Assembly: GCF_003334405.1 (NCBI RefSeq)
Contig: NZ_QOWM01000067.1
Length of the DNA: 413 nucleotides
Source of the DNA: Escherichia coli
GTDB taxonomy: Bacteria > Pseudomonadota > Gammaproteobacteria > Enterobacterales > Enterobacteriaceae
Direction: 5' to 3' (one strand)
In this document: positions 6 through 85 of the stretch, in pieces
Position numbering within the stretch: the stretch's first letter is position 1
Layout: every line of letters starts with the position of its first letter
Program-made: the position numbers and the translations under genes
The notes under the pieces: model-generated
The model's input: the letters and a program-made list of their open reading frames with translations, nothing else
The model's database searches: none
What the model was told of the DNA's origin: nothing

Positions 6-34
6 GCCTGATGCGCTACGCTTATCAGGCCTAC
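6..34 (+). repeat. REP palindromic unit, Z2-like (29 bp); reads 5'-GCCTGATGCG...GGCCTAC-3' on plus strand
   Basis: Sequence gcctgatgcgctacgcttatcaggcctac. Imperfect palindrome: 6-12 pairs with 24-30 (7 bp), 13-15 pairs with 19-21 (3 bp), tt bulge at 22-23, loop cta at 16-18. Ends in CTAC (GTAG on the opposite strand). Matches my recollection of the short E. coli Z2 PU consensus. Confidence 0.8.
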
Positions 35-51
35 AGATTCTTGCGCCATTC

Positions 52-85
52 GTAGGCCGGATAAGGCGTTCACGCCGCATCCGGC
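52..85 (-). repeat. REP palindromic unit, Y-like (34 bp); reads 5'-GCCGGATGCGGCGTGAACGCCTTATCCGGCCTAC-3' on minus strand
   Basis: Plus strand gtaggccggataaggcgttcacgccgcatccggc. Its reverse complement matches the classical E. coli REP/PU Y consensus as I recall it. Stem 56-62 pairs with 79-85, inner stem 65-68 pairs with 73-76, loop ttca. Starts with GTAG on the plus strand. Confidence 0.88.

Follow-up and report, generated by a model that had tools for sequence, protein, structure and literature searches.

GTAG-tagged REP hairpins of a tandem BIME array in the Escherichia coli yahG-yahI spacer: predicted RayT substrates and insertion points for IS621

The window analysed here, a stretch of 413 nucleotides from E. 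coli, is placed by megablast in the spacer between yahG and yahI, and consists of 4.4 perfect head-to-tail copies of a 93-bp unit, which are 100% identical and follow a strict 93-bp period. The two genes are co-oriented and their operon runs on the minus strand of the window, such that the window's plus strand is antisense to both. Many genomes have 'yahH' or a hypothetical protein as the annotation of this spacer, and 'yahH' is a spurious open reading frame across the repeat; two minus-strand frames (1 and 2) are free of stops across the window and 93 bp corresponds to 31 codons, which explains these annotations.

Each unit contains, in order, a Z hairpin, a 17-nt linker, a Y hairpin, and a 13-nt linker, and is an E. 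coli BIME repeat. The short Z palindromic unit is found at 6-34, 99-127, 192-220, 285-313, and 378-406 on the minus strand; the plus strand of the first copy reads GCCTGATGCGCTACGCTTATCAGGCCTAC, with the REP on the minus strand (GTAGGCCTGATAAGCGTAGCGCATCAGGC) and the iREP on the plus strand. The Y palindromic unit lies on the plus strand at 52-85, 145-178, 238-271, and 331-364, and its first copy, GTAGGCCGGATAAGGCGTTCACGCCGCATCCGGC, is composed of GTAG followed by GCCGGAT, AA, GGCG, TTCA, CGCC, GC, and ATCCGGC, with the iREP on the minus strand. The CTAC of Z (31-34) and the GTAG of Y (52-55) are positioned head to head over the 17-nt linker AGATTCTTGCGCCATTC (35-51, repeated at 128-144, 221-237, and 314-330, and partially present at 407-413). 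A first-pass annotation of the same DNA had located both tags and described their GTAG ends as facing each other across 17 bp, which is exact; an additional CTAC at 16-19, inside the Z loop, had been omitted from it. The 13-nt linker (AATGGTGACAAAT) is in a tail-to-tail position at 86-98, and again at 179-191, 272-284, and 365-377.

For single-stranded DNA, the folding energy is -12.1 kcal/mol (z -4.5) for the Y unit (52-85, plus strand) and -8.5 kcal/mol (z -3.9) for the Z unit (34-6, minus strand); in both, the GTAG is unpaired directly 5' of the hairpin, and each fold includes a 2-nt bulge or internal loop. The hairpins have the attributes of REP or PU elements, being imperfect palindromes with a mismatch and a 5' GTAG at an extragenic site, and the array has those of a BIME, with alternating PU orientation, short conserved linkers, and tandem copies. 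We also note that linker bases 41-50 pair with 86-97 in the single-strand fold, which lengthens the Y hairpin and leaves C51 together with GTAG as a 5-nt bulge; the linkers on either side of Y are thus partly complementary.

The type of Z unit bears on how the array is to be classified. In single-copy BIME-1 contexts elsewhere, the short Z type is joined to Y via a ~34-nt IHF-type L linker, and the long Z is the form present in REP325 and in the flanks of rayT, and is the one named Z2 in the literature. The short Z of the window is probably of the Z1 type, the BIME-1 partner, as judged from secondary sources, and the label Z2 that it had been given in the first-pass annotation is probably wrong. 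A canonical BIME-2 pairs Y with Z2, and the Z partner here is probably not of that type; if it is Z1-type, the array would be an 'atypical BIME' and not a BIME-2, with the mechanism considered below being unaffected by the name. In the literature we found neither a published classification nor an insertion count for the yahG-yahI array, and the supplements of PMC11208160 do not contain yahG, yahH, or yahI.

The array is variable among strains. Spacer lengths differ mostly in ~93-bp steps, with one series of 142, 328, 421, and 513 bp, a second of 153 and 246 bp, and also a 95-bp form. None of the complete E. coli genomes contains the exact 413-nt window, their best match reaching 98.4%, and a 114-nt pattern from the window has no match among species-representative genomes; it matches four metagenome contigs, none of which has the full window. 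The closest allele found is on one metagenome contig, OATN01000477.1, with 4.2 perfect copies in a 390-nt perfect run between yahI and yahG (12109-12498, minus strand, in the examined piece). As K-12 contains ~2 perfect copies of the window's unit, and the metagenome allele has its 390-nt run, the window represents an allele in which the yahG-proximal unit has been amplified further.

Several further variants are seen at or around arrays of this type. The first Y unit of the OATN01000477.1 allele has a mutated tag, GTAA. Immediately 3' of CTAC, the head-to-head linker differs between units and strains (CTAC-AATTC, with 16 nt, CTAC-AGATTC, and CTAC-AAATTC), and these indels adjoin the RayT site II and the IS621 core position described below. 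In strain IH5 (NZ_CP168269.1), a Z unit of the array breaks off within the hairpin (...GCGTAGCGCATC) and is joined there to a tRNA-Met gene, at its 3' end, upstream of mltA. This fusion marks either an array-internal breakpoint of a chromosomal rearrangement or a fault in the assembly. At the end of the XL1-Blue record NZ_CP081007.1, a copy of the array with five units is bracketed by inverted copies of one ISAs1 5' fragment, amid a mosaic of truncated IS, RHS, tRNA, and phage pieces. We considered this copy as a product of RayT transposition and rejected it, the inverted ISAs1 fragments, truncated genes, and location at the end of the record indicating that it is likely an assembly patchwork.

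The first-pass annotation had proposed the hairpins as candidate substrates for a REP-associated transposase (RAYT), and had suggested that the genome be searched for such a gene flanked by matching REPs. E. coli K-12 has such a gene: rayT (b0228) encodes a protein identical to the crystallised TnpAREP (PDB 4ER8, 'TnpArep') with the motifs H59-M60-H61 and Y115, and GTAG-tagged Y and long-Z REPs lie on either side of the gene. Of 5426 complete E. coli genomes, 3575 contain rayT, nearly always as a single copy, a proportion similar to that given for tnpAREP by Ton-Hoang et al. (74 of 110). K-12 carries both rayT and the yahG-yahI array, ~92 kb apart, and at least ~1760 genomes have window-like arrays and no rayT. 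Only minor REP and BIME differences were described between strains with and without tnpAREP (Ton-Hoang et al.), and a mobilome study did not find circular REP DNA.

The substrate properties of TnpAREP are well defined in vitro. The protein binds only single-stranded REPs and requires both the 5' GTAG and the stem mismatch (PMC3333891), recognises every one of the four bases in the tag, its crystal form being auto-inhibited (PMC3479197), depends on T11 and G32 (PMC8266576), and shows activity on y, z1, and z2 (PMC3333891, PMC8266576). Cleavage is between C and T (shown here with a slash), at iREP site I, TGCC/TGAT, at iREP site II, GGCC/TAC, which is inside the tag complement, and at CT sites in linkers (PMC3333891). 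By sequence match, the first Y unit of the window has GTAG at 52-55, T11 at 62, the A12A13/G26C27 bulge at 63-64/77-78, and G32 at 83, and the equivalent determinants are all present in Z on the minus strand. Consensus matches to the cleavage sites are found on the plus strand in the Z iREP, with site I (TGCC/TGAT) predicting a cut at 8/9 and a strong form of site II (GGCC/TACA) predicting one at 31/32, and on the minus strand in the Y iREP, where site II (CGGCC/TACG) predicts a cut at 55/54. The 17-nt linker at 35-51 has candidate sites at C40/T41 (plus strand) and C36/T35 (minus strand), and CT is absent from the 13-nt linker at 86-98 on either strand.

With every published determinant present, the array matches a RayT substrate on both strands and nine times over, and we infer from this exact match to the in vitro determinants that RayT acts on the yahG-yahI array. 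The proposal that the hairpins are candidate RAYT substrates is thus supported by the GTAG, the AA/GC bulge, T11, G32, and the CC/T sites in both Y and Z. The accompanying statement that the array offers many identical target and cleavage sites is correct in that tags and sites recur in each unit, but the GTAG is a recognition and guide sequence, and RayT cleaves at CT, either within the CTAC of the inverted copy or in a linker.

The same tags coincide with sequences recognised by an insertion sequence. The natural IS621 target is ATCAGGCCTAC, with a CT core (Durrant et al., PMC11208160), and the top strand is cleaved after the T of the core. There are five exact matches to ATCAGGCCTAC in the window, relative to 0.01 expected by chance, all on the plus strand, at 24-34 (core 31-32), 117-127 (core 124-125), 210-220 (core 217-218), 303-313 (core 310-311), and 396-406 (core 403-404). 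The Y unit contains a version with one mismatch, ATCCGGCCTAC, in four copies on the minus strand (the first at 62-52), and this Y-side sequence is a weaker IS621 target. A second element, IS1397, inserts in the Y loop, and its target GCGTG/AACGC is found there on the minus strand of 66-75, where it corresponds to the CFT073 site (a sequence match only, with a 78-nt reconstructed target).

IS621 DNA was obtained by way of the transposase sequence, confirmed against PDB 8WT6, and from there through its genomic copies. The element is 1279 bp long with the junctions ...ATCAGGC/CTTGTAT...ACAGTAT/CTAC, and one natural copy elsewhere interrupts a Z unit of the same sequence as that in the window. Complete E. 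coli genomes were screened with a chimeric query composed of the yahI flank, IS621, and the yahG flank, and also with a query in which the element was reversed. IS621 is present in the yahG-yahI spacer of 31 complete genomes in the orientation predicted by the target, with both flanks intact in 28 and one flank only in three. At all five loci inspected, it is inserted at GCTTATCAGGC^CT^AC of a Z unit, corresponding to window position 31/32, and these insertions represent three array contexts: a long array interrupted in its third Z, a short allele interrupted in its single Z, and an array in which a diverged IS621 occupies the first Z, with two more units following. One genome has a reversed IS621 within the Y tag, at GTAG/IS621/GCCGGAT, which corresponds to window position 54/55. 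The insertions in the 31 genomes and in this one show that IS621 does enter both the Z and the Y tag at the orthologous locus. Besides these, there are ~45 genomes in which the yahI and yahG flanks are not joined. The first-pass annotation had also noted that some insertion sequences target REPs and had recommended a screen of related strains, and here the expectation was borne out, with IS621 in 32 complete genomes at both tags (31 at Z and one at Y), or ~0.6% of complete E. coli genomes.

We also note that IS621 copies in the array border larger rearrangements (NZ_CP133916.1, NZ_CP068591.1), with the order yahI-IS621-codA in strain M23314 and lacA-IS621-yahG in EF7-18-58. The latter order is what would be seen had a ~20-kb segment flanked by two REP-borne copies of IS621 been lost or rearranged. 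These IS621-bordered rearrangements illustrate how REP arrays seed structural variation.

Taken as a whole, it is very probable that the segment at 30-56 is the Z/Y head-to-head junction in a tandem BIME array, and that its GTAG tags are used by both RayT and IS621, two unrelated recombination systems. In relatives, IS621 uses both tags at this locus. RayT, a monomeric HUH Y1 enzyme, would act on single-stranded DNA, where each strand presents REPs with a GTAG and a bulged hairpin for it to bind; tag bases A3 and G4 would guide the choice of C/T cleavage sites, with predicted cuts at 8/9 and 31/32 on the plus strand, at 55/54 on the minus strand, and at the linker C/T sites, and cleavage and strand transfer could then excise, diversify, or amplify units. 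IS621 acts on double-stranded DNA, in which the 11-bp ATCAGGCCTAC, spanning the foot of the Z stem and the tag, serves as a natural bridge-RNA target with recombination at the CT core at 31-32. The A3-G4 of GTAG and the CT of CTAC are the same base-pair step, and this step is both the guide and cleavage dinucleotide of RayT and the core of the IS621 target.

Several other explanations of the tags and the array need to be considered. All occurrences of GTAG or CTAC in the window are copies of one unit and, because the window is composed of perfect 93-bp repeats, its nine tagged hairpins (five Z and four Y) are copies and not independent observations; the presence of the tetranucleotide beside the hairpins could thus have been a chance feature of one repeat unit. 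However, exact GTAG is present in the same place, at -4 to -1, in 25 of 30 independent REP hairpins in a 164-kb sample of E. coli K-12, relative to a background of 0.19% per position, with GTAA, ATAG, GTAT, GGCG, or GTTG at the other five, and the tag is described as highly conserved in the literature. GTAG adjacency characterises the repeat family as a whole, far beyond chance, and this refutes coincidence to the point where we give it almost no weight. A more serious possibility, to which we attach somewhat less than an even chance, is that hairpins and tags are kept mainly for the host, as a yahG/yahI 3'UTR terminator, as an mRNA stabiliser, or for binding of DNA gyrase, Pol I, or HU, with use by RayT and IS621 reflecting incidental parasitism of an abundant motif, and this is compatible with the use of the tags by both systems. 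The array lies between co-oriented genes, similarly to REP325 in yjdM-yjdN, which is reported to be a partly Rho-dependent terminator and stabiliser, and arrays persist in genomes lacking rayT. There are also four matches to naRNA4 (RF02564) on the plus strand, at 55-124, 148-217, 241-310, and 334-403, scoring 78 bits against a gathering score of 59.5, in an alignment that has to drop 7 nt from the upper stem of Z because the Z is of the short form. However, the score for the operon strand is 53.9, below threshold, and an RNA-level role leaves unexplained the four invariant bases outside of the stem, each of which is read by TnpAREP.

The number of copies presents a separate question, and we regard it as evenly balanced whether the 4.4-copy amplification and the ~93-bp steps arose through replication slippage or unequal homologous recombination with no involvement of RayT. 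A change in copy number within a perfect tandem array requires no transposase, and the complete identity of the copies, their strict period, and the alleles differing by whole units are all consistent with such processes, as is the lack of transposase junction scars in the perfect tandem array. On the other side, TnpAREP can join several REPs into one product in vitro, and models have been put forward for how BIMEs are amplified. Slippage or recombination and amplification by RayT are indistinguishable from the window sequence.

We return to the shared use of the tags by RayT and IS621, which we favor. That REPs are RayT substrates and IS621 targets is already established, and it is the coincidence of the RayT dinucleotide with the IS621 core that is mildly new. 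In the literature searched, no paper treats IS621 and TnpAREP together, and IS621 and RAYT appear together only in older work (a 2010 paper and a 2011 review). After insertion of IS621, the hairpin is preceded by CAAG and not GTAG, and this should abolish recognition of the interrupted unit by RayT. It is conceivable, if rather unlikely, that the IS621 bridge-RNA target evolved onto the one REP segment kept invariant by RayT and that the two systems compete for sites. A multi-copy array also offers the IS621 bridge recombinase several natural insertion sites of identical sequence, which is relevant when using a wild-type bridge RNA in E. coli.

Comparison with characterised systems places the array alongside the TnpAREP substrates and the MG1655 REPtron (Ton-Hoang 2012; Messing 2012; Corneloup 2021; RayT is also YafM). 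The window Y has the same tag, lower stem, and bulge, although the Y 3' of rayT differs from it at two upper-stem or loop bases. The REP/iREP pairs 3' of rayT are arranged head to head over a 17-nt linker, as they are in the window, where iREP motifs I and II are both present. In contrast, it is the long Z that flanks rayT in MG1655, whereas the window has the short Z, in an array amplified to at least 4.4 perfect copies. The window's 11-bp match to the natural target of IS621, a bridge-RNA recombinase of the IS110 family (Choi 2003; Durrant 2024; Hiraizumi 2024), is exact and includes the CT core, and the junctions in relatives are canonical (ATCAGGC-CT-TGTAT... and ...ACAGTAT-CT-AC), although the window itself is an empty site, five times over, with no IS within it. 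The Y site of the window has a C at target position 4, where Durrant 2024 reports tolerance of an A or G mismatch, and one natural insertion at a C was found here. REP325, or naRNA4 (RF02564, yjdM-yjdN), is similarly a tandem Y+Z array between co-oriented genes with one strand scoring above threshold, but it has the long Z2 and a different period, and in the window the best-scoring strand is antisense to the operon.

More broadly, the E. coli REP/RayT system shares with IS200/IS605 elements such as IS608 and ISDra2 an imperfect hairpin and, 5' to it, a tetranucleotide by which a Y1 HUH enzyme is guided on single-stranded DNA. RayT departs from IS608 and ISDra2 in that just two of the four bases, A3 and G4, guide cleavage, with a specificity for CT, in that it is a monomer, and in that the REPs do not flank the transposase as a mobile unit. 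The REPIN-RAYT system of Pseudomonas (Bertels and Rainey 2011) also combines inverted REP doublets with a single-copy, vertically inherited RAYT, whereas the E. coli BIMEs form long tandem arrays of two hairpin types.
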